From NCBI GenBank assembly GCA_044356325.1, contig JBIKWJ010000001.1, positions 56,305 to 120,304 on the forward strand: a stretch of DNA of 64,000 bases, read 5' to 3'. This stretch comes from Minisyncoccia bacterium. GTDB taxonomy: Bacteria > Patescibacteriota > Minisyncoccia > SW-4-49-11. Position 1 is the stretch's first letter; each line of letters opens with the position of its first letter. The notes beneath the pieces were generated by a model. The model was not told the origin of the DNA. It saw only the letters and a program-made list of their open reading frames with translations, and did not search any database. Below are positions 1,254-40,867 of the stretch, in pieces. The position numbers and the translations under genes were made by a program.

Positions 1254-1296
1254 TGCGGAGAGAAAGGGATTAGAACTCGTCGCAAATGGGATTTGC
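1254..1296 (-). repeat. Partial duplicate of the tRNA-Ser 3' end (about 25 nt) fused to the hairpin gcaaatgggatttgc. Looks like an att-site remnant.
   Basis: Plus-strand tgcggagagaaagggattagaactc is close to the 3' end of the intact tRNA-Ser at 1521-1545 (tgcggagagagagagatttgaactc). It is followed by gtc and then the perfect inverted repeat gcaaat-ggg-atttgc. Confidence 0.5.
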
Positions 1297-1520
1297 TCCT
1301 TGAAACCACCTCAGTTTCCTCAATACCCCTACAACCCCATCTCGGACACCCACGGTTTCCGACATTCGGAGCAAGCACCTCACTGCCTTCCTCTCTAGGG
1401 GTATTGATTACATCCTCCACGGGAAACTACCGTTTCCCGACCCCTTCCCTGACTTCAAATCTCTCCCAACTGCTACACATAATATAAAAAATTGGGGATA
1501 TACCCCATTTTCTATATTTG

Positions 1521-1609
1521 CGGAGAGAGAGAGATTTGAACTCTCGATAGGTTTGACCCTATACTGCGTTTCGAATGCAGCGCAATAAACCGGACTATGC
1601 GATCTCTCC
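1521..1609 (-). tRNA. tRNA-Ser (anticodon CGA), type II with a long variable arm.
   Basis: Reverse complement is GGAGAGATCGCATAGTCCGGTTTATTGCGCTGCATTCGAAACGCAG...GAGAGTTCAAATCTCTCTCTCTCCG. The 7 bp acceptor stem pairs GGAGAGA with TCTCTCC, the anticodon loop is TTCGAAA, and the T-loop is TTCAAAT. It is followed on the minus strand by the weak hairpin GGGGtatatCCCC and a T-run. Confidence 0.8.
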
Positions 1610-9091: not shown

Positions 9092-10662
9092 TACTGATCT
9101 ATAGTTAATTTGGATACTACTGCTGGAACTGCTTCAAAAGACTTTTCATTCTCAATTAATATATTTTTTTGTTTTAATGGTAATGAAGCTTGTAAAAATG
9201 GAATCATAATCATAATATTTAATACTATCCAGGTACCATTCGCAAATAATGATGCGGTGACACCACTATGAGAAAGATAATACGTTATTCCAATTAAAGA
9301 TATCAATATATATATAATATGTGGCCAATTAAGATGAATAAAATTACCAGAAACTTGAGTCTTAGAAGTGATACTAAATCCATTTTTTTGACCAGTCAAT
9401 ACTGCGATTAAAGCTTGAATATGAATCATAAAAGAACTCATTGAGAAAGCTAGCCCTTTAAAAGAATAGGTAAAATTACTACTTCTTTGTAATATATACA
9501 TAACTAGATAAATATATGGGATAAAGATTAGAGCAATAATCATACTAGAATTTATCAATGGGACATTCCCAGTGAATAAGAATATAAGTGGTAAAATCAT
9601 ATTCAAGAGGAATATGACACCAGATAAATAATAGCTAGCTGAGGATAAATATTGTAATTTTTGAGAGAAAGATAACCCCCTATTGAACAAGGGATTATAT
9701 TTGAATATTATTTCTAAACTACCTCTTGCCCATCTAAATTGCTGCTTATAATATGACATAAAATCTTCTGGAGCAAGTCCCTCTGCTAATACCTCTTGTA
9801 TATATACAGATTTCCAGCCCTTTGAGTGGACAAATAAGGAAGTGAGAAAATCTTCTGCAATATTAGTCTCACACATTCCACCAACCGCCATAATTGCCTC
9901 TCTTCTTAATACCATATTAGTACCACACATAAAAACCGAGTTAGTTTTATTCTTACCCTTACAGATAGCTCCAAAAAATAATTCTTGTTGTCTCCAAGCC
10001 CCTTCAGTGACAAGATTCTGATTATGATTCTTATAATATTGTGGTGTTTGCACAAAACCTACTTTCGAATCAATAAAATATCCCATAGTTTTCTGTAAGA
10101 ACTCTTGATCCGGTACATGATCTGCATCGAATACCACAAAGAATTCACTTTTTGTTTGCTGTAAAGCATTATTTATATTACCAGCCTTAGCTCCATGTGG
10201 AATTTTCCTTGTAATACAGTTGACACCCAAGTCTTTAGCTAATTTTTTAACTTCTCGCCAATTATCTTTTTTAGCTACAAAGCCATCATTTAATACATAA
10301 ATATTAAATTTTGGATATACCATATTCTTGGCCGCAATAGCGGTTTCCTTGATGATTTCAATTGGTTCTCCTGCCACTGTGATAAATATATCTACTTCTG
10401 GAGAAAAGTTTTCATCATATATATTATTACTTTGAGTGTCCCAAACTGTAATAATATACGTAATTATTTGCCATAAATGAAATATTTCTCCTACAATCAA
10501 AATAGCATATAACCAATAATTACTAGGTGCTATAAAAAATGTAATAAATATAAAGTAAATAAGCGATATTAATGCCACTCCTATGAGTAATATTTTAGAG
10601 GCTTGGGTATTTTGTAAAAATATTTTACGTGGATTATCATTCATAGACATATAATTATTCAT
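9091..10662 (-). CDS. Processive family 2 glycosyltransferase (cellulose-synthase-like, BcsA/PgaC-type).
   Basis: 523 aa. Contains the D, D, D motifs (VVFDADHVPD) and the hallmark QxxRW (QQFRWARG), with N- and C-terminal transmembrane helices. Confidence 0.8.
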   Translation of the reverse strand: MNNYMSMNDNPRKIFLQNTQASKILLIGVALISLIYFIFITFFIAPSNYWLYAILIVGEIFHLWQIITYIITVWDTQSNNIYDENFSPEVDIFITVAGEPIEIIKETAIAAKNMVYPKFNIYVLNDGFVAKKDNWREVKKLAKDLGVNCITRKIPHGAKAGNINNALQQTKSEFFVVFDADHVPDQEFLQKTMGYFIDSKVGFVQTPQYYKNHNQNLVTEGAWRQQELFFGAICKGKNKTNSVFMCGTNMVLRREAIMAVGGMCETNIAEDFLTSLFVHSKGWKSVYIQEVLAEGLAPEDFMSYYKQQFRWARGSLEIIFKYNPLFNRGLSFSQKLQYLSSASYYLSGVIFLLNMILPLIFLFTGNVPLINSSMIIALIFIPYIYLVMYILQRSSNFTYSFKGLAFSMSSFMIHIQALIAVLTGQKNGFSITSKTQVSGNFIHLNWPHIIYILISLIGITYYLSHSGVTASLFANGTWIVLNIMIMIPFLQASLPLKQKNILIENEKSFEAVPAVVSKLTIDQ

Positions 10663-12173: not shown

Positions 12174-13541
12174 TTAGTAAGCGACTGGTCTTGGCATTGG
12201 AACTGGTAAAATATTAGTAAATCCAGATTGAAAAAATAATAAATACAAAGCCAATATAATTACAAACCAAATAAATTGTAGAATGATAATTGACAATAAA
12301 TTACCCCAACCCTTTCTCAAACCAACCATAATAGCTGGTGCGAGGAGAATGAGAGCATATAATAGAGTTGTGATGACTGAAATCAGAGAGCTGAATGTGG
12401 GATCATAATATATATATTGCCATACATTATTATAATTCAAGACTCTTAATATAAGACTTATAATAATGACTACAATAACTGCTCCCAGACTAATTAAAAC
12501 ATTATTCAAATCAAATAAATGAATAGAATTTTTATTGGTAATATTCTGCTCCTTATTTTGTGTTTTGCGAGAGTCATCCGAACTTTTTTTAGGTTTAGAA
12601 TTGATATATTTTGAAATGAGATAAATCAATACAATAATCGCAGCAATCACGAGAATTGTATTGATAATTTCATTGAGATAAAGCCTCAACCAATTCTTGG
12701 CATATTCTCCTCTGACATTAAAACTCTCATTAGGAGCGAGACTTTTACCCTCTTTTATAATTGCTCCATAAGAGCCAATATTACTAACTACCCTGTCTAA
12801 TTCCCTACTAGATACAGCTGATGAATCTCCTAATTTAGCCATAGGCATAGTCCCAGCACTTTCATTATAATTGACCGATGATTGTTTGCCTTTGATAAAT
12901 AAATCACTATCTACATCTACTGCTACTTTCGTTGATTGTATTCTGGAATTTACTCGTATAGTCTCAAAATTGAATTTATATAAACCAAAAGTATTATCTA
13001 CATAACCCTTAGAAGCATAAGAGATAATAAGAGCAGTAGATTTGGAAGGCTCGACTGAATTAGGCAAAGTTAAATTATAAGTATTTCCCGTTTTCGTATA
13101 TTTGATTTTAGTATATTCAGCTGATTGTCCTGAGCCATAGTAATAATAATCTTGCCCATAATCTGGGTCACGATATTCCAAACACTTATTAGGTTGAGTA
13201 TTATAATCATATCTTACACATTCTGGAGGTAATTTCATCTGATACATTATCATCTCATAAGGATCAACTTTTGGAATTTCAAAACTAAAGTCGCTGAGAG
13301 CCTGTTCCTCTCGATTAGGGATAACTATTTTAGCATAGGTAATAGCCTCACCATTACCACGAAAAACCACACTATAGGAATGTTTTTGCCCAAATAAAAG
13401 TGAGTTGGAAGTATCAGAGGGTATAGGTGGAATAGGATACAGAGCAGGTCTTGATTCAGCAAAAACAACTCCCCCAAAATTAGTTAAAAAAAGACCCAGT
13501 ACTAGTACTAAAGCAATAGATTTCCTTATTATTTTATACAT
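12174..13541 (-). CDS. Secreted, membrane-anchored hypothetical protein.
   Basis: 455 aa. It has an N-terminal signal peptide (LVLVLGLFLTNFGGVVFA), a large extracytoplasmic domain and C-terminal transmembrane helices. Confidence 0.45.
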   Translation of the reverse strand: MYKIIRKSIALVLVLGLFLTNFGGVVFAESRPALYPIPPIPSDTSNSLLFGQKHSYSVVFRGNGEAITYAKIVIPNREEQALSDFSFEIPKVDPYEMIMYQMKLPPECVRYDYNTQPNKCLEYRDPDYGQDYYYYGSGQSAEYTKIKYTKTGNTYNLTLPNSVEPSKSTALIISYASKGYVDNTFGLYKFNFETIRVNSRIQSTKVAVDVDSDLFIKGKQSSVNYNESAGTMPMAKLGDSSAVSSRELDRVVSNIGSYGAIIKEGKSLAPNESFNVRGEYAKNWLRLYLNEIINTILVIAAIIVLIYLISKYINSKPKKSSDDSRKTQNKEQNITNKNSIHLFDLNNVLISLGAVIVVIIISLILRVLNYNNVWQYIYYDPTFSSLISVITTLLYALILLAPAIMVGLRKGWGNLLSIIILQFIWFVIILALYLLFFQSGFTNILPVPMPRPVAY

Positions 13542-13660
13542 ATTTTTATTTAGTAATTTAATACTGAATATATAATAACATAAATTTAAAAAATTATCTC
13601 AAATTTAGGAAAAGCAAATATTCTCAGAAAAAAACTTTTACAAATAATATAGTAGTGATT

Positions 13661-14005
13661 TTATTCGTTGTGATTTTGATTGACTTTAAAAGCAATAATT
13701 TTCTCAATCAACTCATAAGGAATGGGTTTATCGAGAGGAAATTGTACTGACCCCTTACCTTGTTTGTATTGGGATAAGTCTTGCGCAAATTCTGTATGAG
13801 CTCTAGGATTGGCATATAATCCAATATGATGTTCAAAGGCGGCAAAATATACCAAAGGTTTATGATTGAGTTTAAAAGCAGGCATTGCATAAGAAATACT
13901 CTCCTCAGCCTCTGGAGCTAAAGTCTTGACCAAATCATATAGCTTATTCAAGATGATTTGTGTTGATTCAGGGAATTGTGATATATATTCAGCTATAGAA
14001 TTCAT
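13661..14005 (-). CDS. DUF1801 (YdhG-like) domain protein.
   Basis: 114 aa with the YdhG-like pattern ...SYAMPAFKLNHKPLVYFAAFEHHIGLY.... Confidence 0.5.
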   Translation of the reverse strand: MNSIAEYISQFPESTQIILNKLYDLVKTLAPEAEESISYAMPAFKLNHKPLVYFAAFEHHIGLYANPRAHTEFAQDLSQYKQGKGSVQFPLDKPIPYELIEKIIAFKVNQNHNE

Positions 14006-14040
14006 ATATTGTTAATTTACATTATATATAGTATAGCATA

Positions 14041-14460
14041 TGAATAAGGTGAGAAAAATCCTAGGTAAACTAGGAGTTATGTAGGGGCGACCTTGTAGTC
14101 GCCTGCACTATTATGTCCTCCTTTCTACATACGGTAGACAAGTGGAGGGGGTGGCCGTCAGGCCAGAGGTGGACTAAGCTAAATTCCCCTCTTGAGGGGT
14201 ACCGTCGTTAGATGGTGGGGTGGAATATTTTTGTAACTTGAGTTTGTGCCCCCCTTCGCCTGCCTGCGGTAGGCAGGGAGGGGGAAGCCTGAAAGACGGG
14301 GGTGGATAGAATCAAAACTAAAGTATATTTGATAATCATATTGAATTTGAGAATATAGGTTTTTAATTATCCACACCCACCGCAAGCGGTTCCCCCTCTC
14401 CAAAGAGGGACATAAGACAGGCAACTGAAAGGTCACCCCTACGAAATGCATAATTTACAA
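14041..14460. repeat. GC-rich interspersed repeat, copy A (composite and degenerate MITE-like element).
   Basis: GC-rich insert in AT-rich DNA. It shares modules with the other copies: gtaggggcgacctt, ggtggccgtcaggccagaggtgga, cctgcctgcggtaggcaggga, ttcccctcttgaggggtaccgtcg and aaggtcacccctac. A hairpin ccccgtaatttacgggg plus T-run follows at 14476-14505. Confidence 0.6.
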
Positions 14461-14503
14461 TTGCCAACTACACCCCACCCCGTAATTTACGGGGTGTTTT
14501 TCT

Positions 14504-14920
14504 TTATATAGACTTGAGGAAGCGCTCAATATCAGGATATCTCTCGCTGAACATAAGATATACAGTTTCTGGCTTCTCTACCTCACCAATTAATATCAGT
14601 TTTTTATTAAGACCAAAAGCAACCCCAGCCTCCATATGAGCAGCAAGTCCACAAGGGAGTAACATTACAATAGTATCAGCATTCTTGAGTCCGGCCATAT
14701 CAGTTTCGAAATGATCAATATGAATGGGATCATTCCAAAAATTGGTATGAGATTCCAAAATATTCATTTGTTCCTCCCAAGGTAAATCAGGAGTGTCTGG
14801 AGTTGCTGGTATATCAAGAAAATTATAACAGCTATAGCCTTTGGATTCTATTCCATCTACAAGAAGCTGAATATTATCAGCATTCCGTGTGCGCCCTATT
14901 ACCATATAGTCTGTTTGCAT
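14504..14920 (-). CDS. Nucleoside 2-deoxyribosyltransferase-like (NDT/LOG/SLOG superfamily) small protein.
   Basis: 138 aa. ...IVMLLPCGLAAHMEAGVAFGLNKKLILIGE resembles the NDT motif, but the position corresponding to the usual catalytic E of the FE pair reads G. Confidence 0.35.
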   Translation of the reverse strand: MQTDYMVIGRTRNADNIQLLVDGIESKGYSCYNFLDIPATPDTPDLPWEEQMNILESHTNFWNDPIHIDHFETDMAGLKNADTIVMLLPCGLAAHMEAGVAFGLNKKLILIGEVEKPETVYLMFSERYPDIERFLKSI

Positions 14921-14957
14921 ATTATTTTTCTCTATCTTTTAGAAAAATTATTTAGGT

Positions 14958-15290
14958 CTATTTTCTAGAGCACCATGTATAACTATCAATACATCTCAAT
15001 GTATTGGGTTCAGAGTCATCAGGACAAATTTTTTCACTAAGAGGGGTGCCTTTTTCATAAATAAGTGAGTTGGCCTGCTCAGCATCATTGACTGAAGATA
15101 AGCAACAACCTGATTCTTTACATTTATTTCTAAAACTTTCATAATATGCTTTTGATTTGGGTTCTATTTTTGTCTGTTGATTAGAGAGATTATTTTCTAC
15201 AGTTTTTTGGTTAATATTAATATAGATAAACAAAATAATACCTATAATAGCTAAAAGAATCGATAATGATATTATATAAATTTTTTTCAT
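14958..15290 (-). CDS. Small Cys-rich secreted or membrane-anchored protein.
   Basis: 110 aa with an N-terminal hydrophobic anchor and 7 Cys in the C-terminal half. Confidence 0.35.
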   Translation of the reverse strand: MKKIYIISLSILLAIIGIILFIYININQKTVENNLSNQQTKIEPKSKAYYESFRNKCKESGCCLSSVNDAEQANSLIYEKGTPLSEKICPDDSEPNTLRCIDSYTWCSRK

Positions 15291-15342: not shown

Positions 15343-15380
15343 TGCGCAGAAGAGAGACTTGAGTCGCAAATGGGATTTGC
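15343..15380 (-). repeat. Partial duplicate of the tRNA-Leu 3' end fused to the same hairpin gcaaatgggatttgc seen at 1282-1296.
   Basis: Plus-strand tgcgcagaagagagacttgagtc is close to the 3' end of tRNA-Leu at 16485-16507 (tgcgcagaagaggacttgaacctc). It is followed immediately by gcaaatgggatttgc. Confidence 0.5.
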
Positions 15381-15451
15381 TATATAGTGTCTAGAATAGC
15401 CTAAAATAGTATATAAAAAAAGGTTTTCCATATTAAATTACTAGCTTACAA

Positions 15452-16342
15452 CTAGTAACTATCCCTCGTATATACCCTTTTTCTAAGTTTAAAAATCATC
15501 CCCGGGAAATTGTATGTTACTGTACCATCTCTTTCTATTTTAAGCCTGAGTGACTCTTTAATCTCATTGGATAAACTATCTGTATATTCAACCCACATTG
15601 ATTTGCCTAAATCTGTCATTTCTTTAGTTCGCATATAGGTTATAGTACCTTCAAAATTATCTATTTCCTCAAAGCAAAACCCAGCTTCATAAAACCATTG
15701 CTTTAATTCTTTTAATTTGGCAAAATACCGAGGGTATTTTTCTGTATCAATACTTTGATATTGTCCTGAGGCTAAATCTTTGATATTTACAATATCATTG
15801 AGAGCATTATGAGTAATATCAGTGGTAATATATGTTTGTAGAATAAATGTACCATTAGAGACTAAAACCCTATTAATTTCTTTTAAAGCTTTTATCTGAA
15901 GTGTTTTAGGCAAATCATATATAGCTGATCTGAGAAAAATACGATCAAAACTTTCATTGGGAAATGGTATATCAACAACAGAAGCTTGGATTTTTTTTAA
16001 TTCTTTTGGCGACATATTTAGCATACCTTGGCTAAAATCAAGTACATAATTTTGACATCTTGGAAAAAGCACCTTTAACCGCTTTGATAATAATGCAGTC
16101 CCACACATTACTTCAAGTATCTTCTGCCCATCTTCAATTTCTGATATTTCAATAATTCTAGGTATTAAGTCATCTCGACGAGTACCTTCATAGGCTTTCC
16201 CATTCCATTGGGAAGCAATCCTATCATAGCGCTTTTGAAGCTGAATATTTATAATGGATGAAACTTCATCTTTGATATTACTTTTTCTTTTTTTGAGTTT
16301 TTCTGAAATTAGAATATTTGTAGAATTATTAAATTTACTCAT
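15452..16342 (-). CDS. Class I SAM-dependent methyltransferase.
   Basis: 296 aa. Motif I is ILEVMCGTALLS, and a post-I acidic residue and the motif ...DRIFLRSAIYDLP... are present. Confidence 0.7.
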   Translation of the reverse strand: MSKFNNSTNILISEKLKKRKSNIKDEVSSIINIQLQKRYDRIASQWNGKAYEGTRRDDLIPRIIEISEIEDGQKILEVMCGTALLSKRLKVLFPRCQNYVLDFSQGMLNMSPKELKKIQASVVDIPFPNESFDRIFLRSAIYDLPKTLQIKALKEINRVLVSNGTFILQTYITTDITHNALNDIVNIKDLASGQYQSIDTEKYPRYFAKLKELKQWFYEAGFCFEEIDNFEGTITYMRTKEMTDLGKSMWVEYTDSLSNEIKESLRLKIERDGTVTYNFPGMIFKLRKRVYTRDSY

Positions 16343-16484
16343 ACTACAAAATTAAACTACTAATTTAAAATAATTATTTATCATTATAAAGATTTTATCA
16401 TAATTTTAAAATTTTTATAAAATACTACGTCTAATAATAAAATATACCCTTAAGGATAAATCCTCAAGAGCATATTTTCTATAG

Positions 16485-16573
16485 TGCGCAGAAGAGGACT
16501 TGAACCTCCACGGTACTTTGTATTTTCCCACAAGCACCTCAAGCTTGCGTGTCTACCATTCCACCACCTGCGC
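16485..16573 (-). tRNA. tRNA-Leu (anticodon GAG), type II.
   Basis: Reverse complement is GCGCAGGTGGTGGAATGGTAGACACGCAAGCTTGAGGTGCTTG + a long variable arm + GGAGGTTCAAGTCCTCTTCTGCGCA. The anticodon loop is TTGAGGT. Confidence 0.8.
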
Positions 16574-37663: not shown

Positions 37664-39577
37664 TTATCTCCGAAACTTGATTGATCTTCCTTGTGGCATA
37701 TTGTTTTTTGTAGGTTCTTTAGGTACCATGAGATTTGATTTTACTTCAGATAATAATTCATCTAAAAGTCCATTTACACTTAATTTTTCTTCTTGGCTTG
37801 AGACATGTAAATCTTTTAGGAATTTTTCTTTGATTAAATATTCTGATTCTCCATAAGCAGAAGTTGATCTACTAAATACCTCTTTTAATTTTTTTGCCAT
37901 TATGGGATTTACATATTCTACGGGCTCAGTAGTAGGGATATCTTGCTTCACTTCTGGAATAACTTCTTCTTTTTTCTCCTCTACTTGTGTGGCAGTATCA
38001 GCGAGTTGGGTGGATACAGGAGGAACAATCTCCTCCTTAGGTATAGGATGATTTTCTATTTTCTCATCTATTTTGGGAGTAGCATCTATAGACTGTAATG
38101 GTAGTATAGGAGCGCTATTAGTCGTATCTTTAGATATAGGATTTTCTTGCTCTGATTTTGGATAAACTATAGGATTAGGTTTATTTGATGCATTATATGA
38201 CTTTGATTTATCATTATAGGGTTTAGAATAAGCTCTAGATTTGTTATCTCTGTCTGATGAAACTTTTGCTTGGGTCTCTGAAGATTTTTTAGTATCTATA
38301 TTCTCAATATGAGCTCCTCTCAGTGAAGATTTAACATTTCCATATGTTTGACGAGAAAATTCAATGATTTTGTCCCTATTGGATATCAACTCTGGCTCTG
38401 GATCAGGTAATGTATCCGCACTAAAAGGCTGACTTGTAGCTCCATCTATCATAAGTTTCAAATATACTTTCCATTTTGGAAGATTAACCAAATCCTCAAT
38501 AGTAAGAACCGGGCTAAATTCTCTCTCCATAAATTCAGCATCAGCAGCCCCAATCCTAAATACAATAGTAGTTCCCACATTTCCAAATACGGCACCTCTT
38601 ACAATTTCAGATAATTGCTCTACATATTGATGAGCTAATATAAGACTTAATCGATATTTGCGAGCTTCTGATAATATTTCCGCAAAAGAATCCGTAGAGA
38701 AATTTTGAAACTCATCAATATAGGCATAAAAATCTTGTCGCTCTTCTTCTGGTATATCAACACGACTCATAGCTGCAAGTTGCATTTTGGTAATCATCAT
38801 CGCTCCGAGTAATTGAGCTCCCCCCTCACCCACAGCTCCTTTAGAAAGATTCATAATCAAAATTTTCTTTTGATCCATAATTTCACGCAAATTAAAAGAA
38901 GATTTAGCCTGTCCAACAATATTACGTATAAGAGGAGAAGAAGTAAATTGTCCTACTTTATTTTGAATTGGTGAAATAGCCTCAACCAATAATTTATCCG
39001 TATATCCATCAAATTCATTAAGCCAAAATTGCTTTAATACAGGATCATGCATTTTATACACAATATTAGCTCGGAAATTCTTATCTACGAGAATACGCAT
39101 AATATCAAGCAAAGTACTTTCTTCATTTTCAAGCAAAGTCAATATGGTATTACGAAGAATATATTCAAGTCTTGGCCCCCAAGAATCAGCCCAAATTTTC
39201 TTAAATACTCCTACCAAACCATCGGATACAATATGTCTTTGATTTTCTGGCACATCACCAAGCACATTAAAAGCAATAGGAAATTCTAAATCTTGTGGAT
39301 TAAAATACACCACATCTTTTATACGATGTTCTGGAATATAATCAAGCAAGGCATCTGCTATATCTCCATGGGGATCAACAAAAGCAAACCCTGAACCATT
39401 TCTAATATCAGACACCGCCATATTGAGAAGTAATGAGGTTTTACCCATACCTGTTTTTCCAATAATATGCATATGTCGACGCCTATCATCTCGCTTAATA
39501 CCAAAAAGTCTTCCCTGACCATGAAAATTAGTCTTGGCAATAATGGTGATATCTTTATTTGTTTGATTTTCACTCAT
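37664..39577 (-). CDS. Soluble VirD4/TraG/TraD-like coupling-protein ATPase with a long low-complexity C-terminal tail.
   Basis: 637 aa. Walker A is HMHIIGKTGMGKTSLL and Walker B is YAYIDEFQNF. It also has the TraG/VirD4-type RKYRLSLILAHQYVEQL motif. It has no N-terminal transmembrane helices. The C-terminal roughly 230 aa is Ser/Lys/Pro/Asn-rich. Confidence 0.6.
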   Translation of the reverse strand: MSENQTNKDITIIAKTNFHGQGRLFGIKRDDRRRHMHIIGKTGMGKTSLLLNMAVSDIRNGSGFAFVDPHGDIADALLDYIPEHRIKDVVYFNPQDLEFPIAFNVLGDVPENQRHIVSDGLVGVFKKIWADSWGPRLEYILRNTILTLLENEESTLLDIMRILVDKNFRANIVYKMHDPVLKQFWLNEFDGYTDKLLVEAISPIQNKVGQFTSSPLIRNIVGQAKSSFNLREIMDQKKILIMNLSKGAVGEGGAQLLGAMMITKMQLAAMSRVDIPEEERQDFYAYIDEFQNFSTDSFAEILSEARKYRLSLILAHQYVEQLSEIVRGAVFGNVGTTIVFRIGAADAEFMEREFSPVLTIEDLVNLPKWKVYLKLMIDGATSQPFSADTLPDPEPELISNRDKIIEFSRQTYGNVKSSLRGAHIENIDTKKSSETQAKVSSDRDNKSRAYSKPYNDKSKSYNASNKPNPIVYPKSEQENPISKDTTNSAPILPLQSIDATPKIDEKIENHPIPKEEIVPPVSTQLADTATQVEEKKEEVIPEVKQDIPTTEPVEYVNPIMAKKLKEVFSRSTSAYGESEYLIKEKFLKDLHVSSQEEKLSVNGLLDELLSEVKSNLMVPKEPTKNNMPQGRSIKFRR

Positions 39578-39586
39578 AATACTGAA

Positions 39587-40867
39587 TTACTCATTGATAA
39601 TAGGAAGTCCCATAGGGGGATTTGCTTTTTTAGCTTGTACTCTTTTAAGAGTTGATGTAGTAATTGCTCCTCCTGGAAAATGAAAGATAGTTGTTAATTC
39701 CTCCGTATTAAAAATAAATTTTGTACTTGCAATTTTGCGTTTAATATAACTATCTAACATTAATATTTTACGAAGACGTTCTTTGCCACGAATAGGTCTA
39801 TTAAAAAAATTACTTACTATAGTTATACTATCTTCATTAGGTTTAAAAGAATTAAGCGTAGAATCATTAAATTGCTTTAAACTACCAAGTAATGCTTTTG
39901 GTTGATTTGGGTTGAATCGAGCTTTTGGAGCTACATATACAACTCTTAAAGCTGTTTTAAATCCTGATTTTGTCATACTAAGTTCAATAGTTTCTATGAT
40001 TTTTTGTTTACCTGGGGTAAGATTTTGATTTACTCCAAATTTTTGTTCTTTTGGAGTAGGTGCTGATGGGGCTTTAACAATACCAAATGAAATAAATTCA
40101 ATGATAGGAGCTATATAGATATCTAAGAATGTTCTCTTATCTTCAAAATCTCGATCCAGTAGCTTATCTAATTCTTTTTTACTCACCTTATTCCAGGTAT
40201 CCTCAAGAGGCTCAATAGGTAATTGCATCCATAATTGCTCATCTGGCTCTATCCCAGCCATTACTTCTAATACCTGAGACAATGGATCATTGATATTAGC
40301 ATCAATACTCGGGTCAAGGAATTGTTGATAGGTACGAATTGGGTAAGCATCATTTTTTTCCATACCAAGATCTACCCCAAAAAGATCATATTCAACCTCT
40401 AATGTATCATTAGTAAATCCTTGGGTATAATCAGAGACCTCTATTATTTCTACCTCCGGAAAAGCCCCATATATGCTATTTTCTACCATTTTGCGATATT
40501 TGACATGAGTTCTGATGAGAAAGTGAATATCTCCTCCAATTGATACAATTTCAAGAGAAAACATATCTGGAAGAGCTCCTTCTATATTTTTTTCCCACCA
40601 AGAATAAGAAGTTTGCCCCCCATGTAGGGTAGTCAAAAATTGCTCCATTGATTTAGGCGTTTTTTCTTCTCCTTTTTCTAATACAATTTCAAGTAATACA
40701 AATTGCAAATTATTACGAATCCAATTCCCTCGAATAAAATCAAAATAAAATGTTCTCAGTATAGTCCACAATATTATTGGAAGCCAAATCCACCAAAAAG
40801 ATAGAATAAATTCAAAAATAAAAAATGCCTGATTTGTGTTTACATAAGATAAAGTATCACTAGGCAT
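39587..40867 (-). CDS. Membrane-anchored protein of unknown function, a likely partner of the ATPase.
   Basis: 426 aa. The N-terminal hydrophobic hairpin (FFIFEFILSFWWIWLPIILWTIL) is followed by a large soluble domain. It is separated from the ATPase by a 9 bp gap. Confidence 0.4.
   Translation of the reverse strand: MPSDTLSYVNTNQAFFIFEFILSFWWIWLPIILWTILRTFYFDFIRGNWIRNNLQFVLLEIVLEKGEEKTPKSMEQFLTTLHGGQTSYSWWEKNIEGALPDMFSLEIVSIGGDIHFLIRTHVKYRKMVENSIYGAFPEVEIIEVSDYTQGFTNDTLEVEYDLFGVDLGMEKNDAYPIRTYQQFLDPSIDANINDPLSQVLEVMAGIEPDEQLWMQLPIEPLEDTWNKVSKKELDKLLDRDFEDKRTFLDIYIAPIIEFISFGIVKAPSAPTPKEQKFGVNQNLTPGKQKIIETIELSMTKSGFKTALRVVYVAPKARFNPNQPKALLGSLKQFNDSTLNSFKPNEDSITIVSNFFNRPIRGKERLRKILMLDSYIKRKIASTKFIFNTEELTTIFHFPGGAITTSTLKRVQAKKANPPMGLPIINE

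Follow-up and report, generated by a model that had tools for sequence, protein, structure and literature searches.

A unit belonging to a widespread and previously undescribed family in Patescibacteria adjoins a tRNA-Ser gene in the 64,000-nt stretch of Minisyncoccia DNA analysed here (the window). We interpret positions 1264–1528 as a miniature, ORF-less, non-autonomous unit that integrates site-specifically at the 3′ end of tRNA-Ser and lies within a tRNA-seeded cassette array, a reading to which we assign a probability of about 0.6. The unit has a definite anatomy, its distal end recurs at a tRNA-Leu gene of the same window, related strains differ by whole units, and the family is spread within Patescibacteria. 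New here are the family itself, the cassette arrays at two tRNA genes of the window, and an inverted copy of the target that closes a conserved fold. Literature searches on the hairpin sequence, on integrons and cassettes of Patescibacteria and on miniature integrative elements gave no description of the module.

All features of the unit are read on the minus strand. It adjoins an intact tRNA-Ser(CGA) gene at 1521–1609 (Rfam RF00005, 47.7 bits; ARAGORN, 1520–1609), whose 3′ end is the attachment site on the attL side; both programs find five further tRNA genes in the window. Directly after the tRNA, an intrinsic-terminator-like hairpin, TGGGGTATATCCCCA, is followed by a T-run (1507–1493) and makes up the tRNA-proximal arm of the unit; L002, L033, L042, L061 and L065 have an equivalent hairpin. 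The next element is a 5′ segment, GCAGUUGGGAGAGAUUUGAAGUC (1451–1475), that repeats the tRNA-Ser T-loop, T-stem and acceptor 3′ end in inverted orientation; it pairs with 1250–1278 and closes the module. The conserved core starts with AGGGAAGGGGUC and hairpin C (CGGGAAAC GGUA GUUUCCCG) at 1420–1450, as seen in the alignment of modules (alignment A1) and in a covariance-model match at 1388–1452. It continues with an 88-nt nested stem-loop at 1320–1407 (inverted repeat I17; a split covariance-model match), in which 1320–1331 and 1396–1407 form a perfect 12-bp stem and the interior is similar to the GGAAGG...GGAAACC part of other modules. Hairpin D (GAAAC...GUUUC) occupies 1302–1318, and the terminal hairpin E, GCAAAUCCCAUUUGC, with GAC occupies 1279–1296 (hairpin at 1296–1282); on the plus strand these read GTC at 1279–1281 and then GCAAATGGGATTTGC at 1282–1296. 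Hairpin E with GAC is the conserved distal end of every family unit.

Beyond GAC lies a partial copy of the tRNA-Ser 3′ end (1250–1278, attR side). Its left part, GAGUUCUAAUCCCUU, is an element-type variant that also occurs in L002, L025 and L042, and its right part is identical to the tRNA end and flank. The direct repeat formed by 1250–1278 and 1515–1543 has 25 identities over 29 positions and takes in 5 nt that follow the tRNA; the runner-up match to the 29-mer anywhere in the window reaches 19/29, and none of 2000 dinucleotide shuffles of the 500-nt flank reaches 25. Within the repeat, an 11-nt block, UCUCUCCGCAA, comprising the acceptor 3′ strand, the discriminator and then CAA (1518–1528), is identical to 1253–1263. 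By the spacing of the repeat, the unit spans 1264–1528, is 265 bp long and contains no ORF.

The window is AT-rich except for its first 1.5 kb. GC content is 0.49 for 1297–1500 and 0.52 for 1279–1475, compared with 0.33 from 1610 onward, and plus-strand GC skew falls to −0.43 in 1475–1279, where the minus strand is G-rich. The segment folds more stably than its shuffled counterparts as RNA (minus strand, z = −4.2; plus strand, z = −5.8) and as single-stranded DNA of the minus strand (z = −5.35). These results agree with a preliminary description of the locus, made from the letters of this DNA, in its claims of an intact minus-strand tRNA-Ser, of a weak terminator hairpin behind it, and of a hairpin with GAC fused to a near-copy of the tRNA-Ser 3′ end, and the stems that it names are present. 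Two of its details need correction: the spacer is indeed GC-rich against the 0.33 background, at 49–52% rather than 55%, and the 8-bp perfect stem is present at 1420–1439, as CGGGAAAC-TACC-GTTTCCCG, with a loop of 4 nt rather than 3.

The 5′ segment is a general feature of the tRNA-linked units. In each of them, a segment of 12–25 nt just before the core is the reverse complement of the sequence that follows GAC, and it differs with the target. In class Ser-A, the 5′ segment is GAGAUUUGAAGUC and the sequence after GAC is GAGUUCUAAUC; in classes Ser-B and Ser-C, (A)GAUUCGAAC/UC is matched with GAGUUCGGAAUC or GGGUUCGUAAUC; and in class Leu, AGGACUUGA or GGCCUUGA is matched with UCAAGUC. Duplex energies are best within a class, with Leu segments reaching −14 to −15 kcal/mol with Leu flanks and −4 to −9 kcal/mol with Ser flanks, save for one low-complexity exception, in which the GA-rich segment of the window is paired with the CU-rich Leu flank. 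Complementary to the start of the fragment, the 5′ segment varies with the target class, which links the fold to the attachment site.

In the window, the segment at 1451–1475 mirrors the whole target, including the CAA that follows the tRNA. In direct reading, it is nearer to the genuine tRNA (14/16) than to the unit's own fragment (11/16), and an inverted repeat (I12) joins 1451–1465 with 1529–1543 over 15 nt at 93% complementarity. Minimum-free-energy folds of the window unit, of L002 E1 and of the Leu unit of L065 contain a closing helix of 15–20 bp with one or two bulges; in L002 E2, too, such a helix joins the two site ends into an imperfect hairpin. The inverted copy on the left lies inside the unit, 45–55 nt from the insertion boundary. 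A second and unrelated module type at the same tRNA (L002 9451–9649; z = −6.5) has the same layout, with terminator-like hairpins, a 5′ segment that pairs with the tRNA fragment, and a highly structured interior. As modelled, one strand of the unit can present a tRNA-like site as a duplex.

The window unit is best explained as the tRNA-proximal member of a small array, whose next unit carries a 431-aa ORF. That unit occupies 1–1249 on the minus strand and consists of an AT-rich leader and an ORF (1–1128) that is cut by the window edge and encodes 431 aa in the full contig; its GC content is 0.48 compared with 0.33, and a TTGACA-17-TATATA arrangement was spotted by eye in its leader at 1229–1201. 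It is closed by half of hairpin E, GAC and a further tRNA-Ser fragment (8040–8089 of L001, the contig of the window), 240 bp left of the window, and this outermost fragment is the same as in the sister strain L002.

In L002, five consecutive tRNA-Ser fragments bound four units. Nearest the tRNA is a 135-bp version of the window unit (L002 9695–9829) that lacks the nested stem-loop of 1320–1407. Outward from it follow a 179-bp unit of unrelated sequence, a unit that has a 434-aa ORF and is closed by half of hairpin E, and a unit that has a 169-aa ORF and ends, like the window unit, in the nested stem-loop, hairpin D and hairpin E. The two strains thus differ in the unit content of the array at tRNA-Ser.

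A second array in the window has tRNA-Leu(GAG) (16485–16573, minus strand) as its attachment site. Adjacent to it on the same strand is a methyltransferase cassette (15381–16484) with an ORF for a class I SAM methyltransferase (15452–16342), followed by hairpin E (15366–15380), GAC (15363–15365) and a copy of the tRNA-Leu 3′ end (15343–15362), in which 19 positions match the tRNA, with one indel, over 20 columns. The tRNA gene stands 1.1 kb upstream of the hairpin E copy with a single gene between them. Exact copies of the 15-nt hairpin E number two in the window, against 0.09 expected. Since the same 18 nt end units at two class II tRNAs, they are not ancestral tRNA sequence and represent a shared element end.

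Comparison with related loci reveals a smaller unit at the same tRNA. The contigs L065 and L068, from other strains, have a 154-nt ORF-less unit exactly at the tRNA-Leu end, and it is absent from L063 (this genome) and L064; the difference between L065 and L064 may be either a gain or a precise loss of the unit. Of the two repeats that bound the unit, the one next to the tRNA, UCAAGUCCUCUUCUGCGCACUAUAU, keeps the tRNA sequence, and the distal one, UCAAGUCUCCCUUCUGCGCACUAUAU, keeps an element-type variant of the CUCCC type. The distal variant also occurs in L062, in L091 and in the window, and it is element-borne because it recurs in this way.

To survey the family, we searched for the exact 18-mer formed by hairpin E and GAC in one genome per species (596 Gb). 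The search returned 52 loci, about half of which are single matches in unrelated phyla, roughly at chance level. The remaining loci belong to at least 11 species-level genomes of Patescibacteria, with up to eight copies each, from Paceibacteria, Parcubacteria, Minisyncoccia and two genomes labelled Saccharibacteria, and a metagenome scan added about 30 further contigs with the module. Altogether 85 loci were fetched, with hairpin E and GAC present in the CPR-type loci among them; because exact-match seeds were used, this sample is biased to recent copies. The conserved module reads ...(A)GGGAA(A)GGGGUC, hairpin C (GGGAAAAC GGGA GUUUUCCC), GUGGAGGAAGG, hairpin D (GGGAAACC GUGA GGUUUC), AGGA, hairpin E and GAC, with optional insertions between these parts and a mean identity of 90% in alignment A1. 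The structured spacer is the conserved part of the element and not passive cargo.

At least six further genomes or contigs have copies adjoining tRNA-Ser, and three have copies adjoining tRNA-Leu. Most copies have GGnGGAGGnGGAC next instead of a tRNA fragment and are sited between co-oriented small genes; the orientation of the module relative to its neighbouring genes varies. Whole-cassette differences at module borders are seen between related contigs, in L052 versus L081 and L022. For the GGnGGAGGnGGAC-flanked modules, which are the largest class, we found no consistent target duplication, and the tRNA model therefore does not cover the whole family.

The enzyme that would move the units was sought at several levels. 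There is no annotated integrase, resolvase or transposase in the window, and none was found in about 8 kb beyond its left end; a scan of all fetched loci for tyrosine and serine recombinase motifs gave none near modules. Pfam searches of 119 ORFs within 4.5 kb of modules gave no recombinase family among the families matched by at least two ORFs. Recurrent neighbours are glycosyltransferases, sugar epimerases, Dus and RhuM, and no protein family is common to the module neighbourhoods. A Y1_Tnp gene is present in one unrelated Patescibacteria locus. An origin from phages or plasmids was rejected, as a viral-contig scan gave chance matches only and BLAST against phage and plasmid collections gave nothing.

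These findings bear on the wider claims of the preliminary description. Both insertion at the tRNA gene and the proposal of a tiny, non-autonomous, tRNA-targeting element gain support from the fusion of hairpin and GAC to a tRNA-Leu fragment as well, from whole-unit differences between sister strains at both tRNAs, and from fragment variants that recur in other genomes and are hence element-borne. The further hairpin copies that it proposed to look for exist, as the second copy in the window (15366–15380) and as the family in at least 11 Patescibacteria genomes. Its reading of the locus as a signature of integrase-mediated insertion is supported for the insertion itself; no recombinase gene was found in the window, in the roughly 8 kb to its left or recurrently near the copies.

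Under the preferred reading of a miniature integrative unit, the parts are, in order, a terminator hairpin that would now end the tRNA transcript, an inverted target copy running from the T-loop through the acceptor 3′ end, the conserved set of G-rich hairpins, GCAAAUCCCAUUUGC with GAC, and an imperfect direct copy of the tRNA 3′ end. Insertion would probably occur by conservative recombination between the tRNA-like site of the element and the tRNA gene, with a putative crossover in the shared acceptor/3′-end block, UCUCUCCGCAA for Ser and UUCUGCGCACUAUAU for Leu; the placement of the Ser crossover in 1518–1528 draws on the tRNA-Leu polymorphism. Since no unit encodes the enzyme, it would presumably act in trans. 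The inverted and direct copies could pair within one strand, so that the attachment site may be shown as a hairpin. The model predicts an empty site in which the tRNA-Ser 3′ end is joined to AAUUAGUAAUACUUG and a circular junction that reads ...GCAAAUCCCAUUUGCGAC-GAGUUCUAAUCCCUUUCUCUCCGCAA-AUAUAGAAAAUGGGG; neither an empty tRNA-Ser site nor an excised circular junction was seen. At the junction of the 431-aa unit, where L001 and L002 are compared, the crossover model needs an extra deletion between identical hairpin E-GAC-GAGUUC segments.

The preliminary description had offered a structured small RNA as its alternative, and the strong fold of the segment speaks for this rival, a non-coding RNA gene, possibly with a tRNA-like end and merely located beside the attachment site. 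A GC-rich island within an AT-rich genome classically points to structured RNA, the loops on the G-rich strand are GNRA-like (GGGA, GAAA and GUGA), and each of the 12 one-sided changes in helices C and D leaves a G.U or U.G pair on the G-rich strand, which would be an A.C mismatch on the other. Folded single-stranded DNA tolerates G.T pairs equally, and covariation in the core hairpins amounts to one compensatory pair, which is not significant because the copies, at about 90% identity, are too similar. Several features disagree with an RNA gene. A terminator lies directly upstream, a promoter scan gave no promoter-like site on the strand of the module, and no Rfam family other than tRNA matches the window at gathering thresholds, 1130–1700 at E ≤ 10, or six related loci at E ≤ 0.1, further hits being at chance level. 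Furthermore, the closing helix changes together with the target of integration, so that the fold is linked to the attachment site and not to a separate RNA function; the orientation to neighbouring genes is inconstant; and the modules are cut down to hairpin E alone in the two ORF-bearing units of the window. A free-standing small RNA is thus disfavoured, and we regard such a gene as quite improbable. By analogy with integron attC sites and the CTXphi hairpin, folded single-stranded DNA would fit all of these points.

Two other kinds of structured RNA were rejected. For a tmRNA or another tRNA-like RNA, ARAGORN gives no match, the fragment has a broken T-stem, and the helix that closes the Leu unit is a duplex of 18 bp and not an acceptor/T-arm. 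For a TnpB/IscB omega-RNA or an IS110 bridge RNA, no such protein and no conserved neighbouring protein is present nearby, and those systems make no target duplication of 20–29 nt.

The absence of any ORF from the segment would also be explained if it were an inert scar, the remnant left by internal deletion of a conventional, integrase-bearing tRNA-Ser island and itself immobile. The modules of the neighbouring units are truncated, with only half of hairpin E in the 431-aa unit, and degenerate elements and partial tRNAs are known to build up in tRNA-seeded islands (bioRxiv 10.1101/2020.12.28.424599). However, the same ORF-less architecture is present at tRNA-Ser in several species and at tRNA-Leu, and independent decay is not expected to yield the same product each time. 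In addition, strains differ by whole units, and an integrase-bearing relative was found in 0 of about 60 loci. We therefore consider a scar unlikely. Less probable still is that the modules are hairpin elements like REP/REPIN or IS200/IS605, mobilised in single-stranded form by an HUH (Y1) transposase encoded once in the genome: the modules are indeed multi-copy, intergenic and hairpin-rich, the subterminal hairpin stands 3 nt from a constant end (GAC), no transposase is nearby, and one Patescibacteria locus does have a Y1_Tnp gene. HUH transposition, however, creates neither a 20–27 nt target duplication nor an element-type variant in one of the copies, the left inverted copy is internal (45–55 nt from the insertion boundary), and the tRNA-side end has no constant adjoining target tetranucleotide. 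A transposon with terminal inverted repeats, or a MITE, was rejected on related grounds: the left inverted copy lies 45–55 nt inside the inserted DNA, and the repeats are 20–29 nt long and differ element-specifically.

We also entertain, tentatively and as a minority view, a broader account in which Patescibacteria possess a cassette system of their own, composed of folded single-stranded DNA modules with an inverted target copy, a recombinase acting in trans and possibly supplied by the host, tRNA 3′ ends as targets, and cassettes that may or may not carry cargo. To change the target from Ser to Leu or to GGnGGAGGnGGAC, it would then be enough to swap the two target-derived arms. The logic of such a system would be like that of integrons or CTXphi, with a target that can be programmed and without an integrase gene dedicated to it. 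If the enzyme sees the hairpin form, the units would provide a third example of recombination on a folded single strand, after integrons and CTXphi-type phages, and the first whose target is apparently determined by two exchangeable arms.

Although the genomes of Patescibacteria are tiny and few mobile elements have been recognised in them, gene content varies between strains. The family offers a concrete route for this variation, with cassettes and gene-less units stacked at tRNA-Ser and tRNA-Leu. In practical terms, module repeats break metagenome assemblies at tRNA genes, and the tRNA fragments are prone to mis-annotation.

Among the marks of a tRNA-targeting element, a tRNA with a partial direct repeat is present at Ser (25/29) and at Leu, and presence and absence at the repeat borders is seen for Leu (L065 and L068 versus L063 and L064); no integrase gene lies inside the ORF-less unit. 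The tycheposons of Prochlorococcus are site-specific integrative elements that encode tyrosine recombinases and build tRNA-seeded islands (bioRxiv 10.1101/2020.12.28.424599). The arrays described here resemble such islands in the proximal intact tRNA, the partial tRNA copies that bound the units, the strain-variable arrays and the degenerate units, but differ in that the units have no recombinase, are as small as 135–265 bp and contain a conserved folded module with an inverted target copy. Cis-mobilizable elements (CIMEs) and other non-autonomous derivatives of integrative elements likewise have attL and attR without an integrase and are presumed to be moved in trans; CIMEs are deletion derivatives of a known parent, whereas the units here have no known parent and a conserved structure of their own.

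Group I introns are common in the tRNA genes of Patescibacteria, where they split the anticodon loop at position 35/36 and are recognised by Rfam Intron_gpI (PMC13011429). They share with the present units the phylum and the association of structured, GC-rich, RNA-like segments with tRNA genes. Here, in contrast, the segment lies outside a tRNA that is intact, the core of only about 105 nt is too short and there is no RF00028 match, and we rejected a group I intron on these grounds. We take GGGAAAGGGGUC to be reminiscent of the P4–P5 motif of such introns.

The closest parallels are found in two systems whose mobile units contain no recombinase of their own. As in integrons, the cassettes are co-oriented and each ends, like a cassette with its attC site, in an imperfect palindrome with paired ends that tolerates bulged bases, and one strand looks functional. 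In contrast to integrons, the array is anchored at its head by a tRNA, neither an IntI gene nor an attI/Pc platform was found nearby, and the cassettes have their own promoter-like leaders. The site itself differs from attC in having no GTTRRRY core, in its target-specific, tRNA-derived ends and constant end GCGAC, and in being longer (100–220 nt) and strongly conserved in sequence. CTXphi-type IMEX elements use the host XerCD recombinase and integrate at the chromosomal dif site. In these elements, as here, no recombinase is encoded, two inverted target-like sites fold into a target-mimicking hairpin in one strand, and tandem arrays build up at the target, which is restored at one end. The target of the present units is, however, a tRNA 3′ end (or GGnGGAGGnGGAC) and not dif, and they have no phage genome and no replication gene. 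In their way of working, the units would be closest to integron cassettes or to CTXphi-type elements, which rely on recombinases of the host, and they belong to neither group.

The 88-nt stem-loop at positions 1320-1407 of the window has an interior (GGAAGGCAGUGAGG...CCGAAUGUCGGAAACCGUGGGUGUCC) similar to the part of other modules that runs from GGAAGG to hairpin D. It has the look of one module's fragment lying inside another module. The position of this insert is not fixed, and in other genomes it is placed before hairpin C. At the tRNA-Leu locus of one strain (L065), a remnant at positions 2208-2235, GAAGAGGACUUGAUGGGAAG, is composed of an inverted tRNA-Leu copy and the first bases of the core, and opens the cassette that follows the methyltransferase cassette. 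This arrangement suggests that the module can take up cargo internally, with the 5′ segment on one side and hairpin E on the other.

The majority of module copies lie away from tRNA genes (L052, L046, L022, L081 and about 40 other loci). In these copies, the module is followed by GGnGGAGGnGGAC and preceded by additional G-rich pieces, CCCCUCUUGAGGGGUGGCAGGCUUUGCCUGACGGGGUGGA and GUCCUCCCUUGGGGGAGGUGGCAC, and small cassettes with promoters separate one copy from another. These loci often contain short scars, for example AUUUGCGAC|GGGUGUGGAC.

In the sister strain (L002), the array at tRNA-Ser contains, at positions 9451-9649, a second type of GC-rich, ORF-less unit, unrelated in sequence to the first. 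Its terminus reads ...GUGACCG|AAUCCCUUUCUCUCCG and hairpin E is absent. It is built like the module unit, with terminator-like hairpins and a helix that closes onto the tRNA fragment (z = -6.5). Immediately outside the left edge of the window (positions 5906-8003 of L001, the window's own contig), the outermost tRNA-Ser fragment is followed on its own strand by genes for an NgoFVII-like restriction enzyme and a cytosine-5 DNA methylase. Beyond these lie further small genes, including one with a beta-lactamase fold. The tRNA-Ser island may be longer than the span marked by tRNA-Ser fragments. Several metagenome contigs of the source population end within the module or tRNA-Ser (L003, L004, L008 and L010), which is what a locus that is repetitive, or that varies within the community, would be expected to produce.

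The tRNA-Leu locus differs among strains. In two of them, the methyltransferase gene is separated from the tRNA-Leu-proximal arm by an inserted IS1595-family DDE transposase remnant of 105 aa (L065, 784-1101; L068, 1319-1636). Past the tRNA-Leu cassette on its downstream side, at window positions 12174-15290, where no additional tRNA-Leu fragments were detected, lies a series of small genes on the same strand that varies among strains (L063 to L066) and includes a 110-aa ORF, a 138-aa ORF matching a nucleoside deoxyribosyltransferase-like PHROG, a DUF1801 gene and a 455-aa ORF.

Elsewhere in the window, positions 37664-40867 encode a 637-aa homologue of TraG/TrwB-like coupling proteins, with weak Pfam matches, adjoined by a DUF8128 protein, and the same pair occurs in a second Patescibacteria locus (L107).
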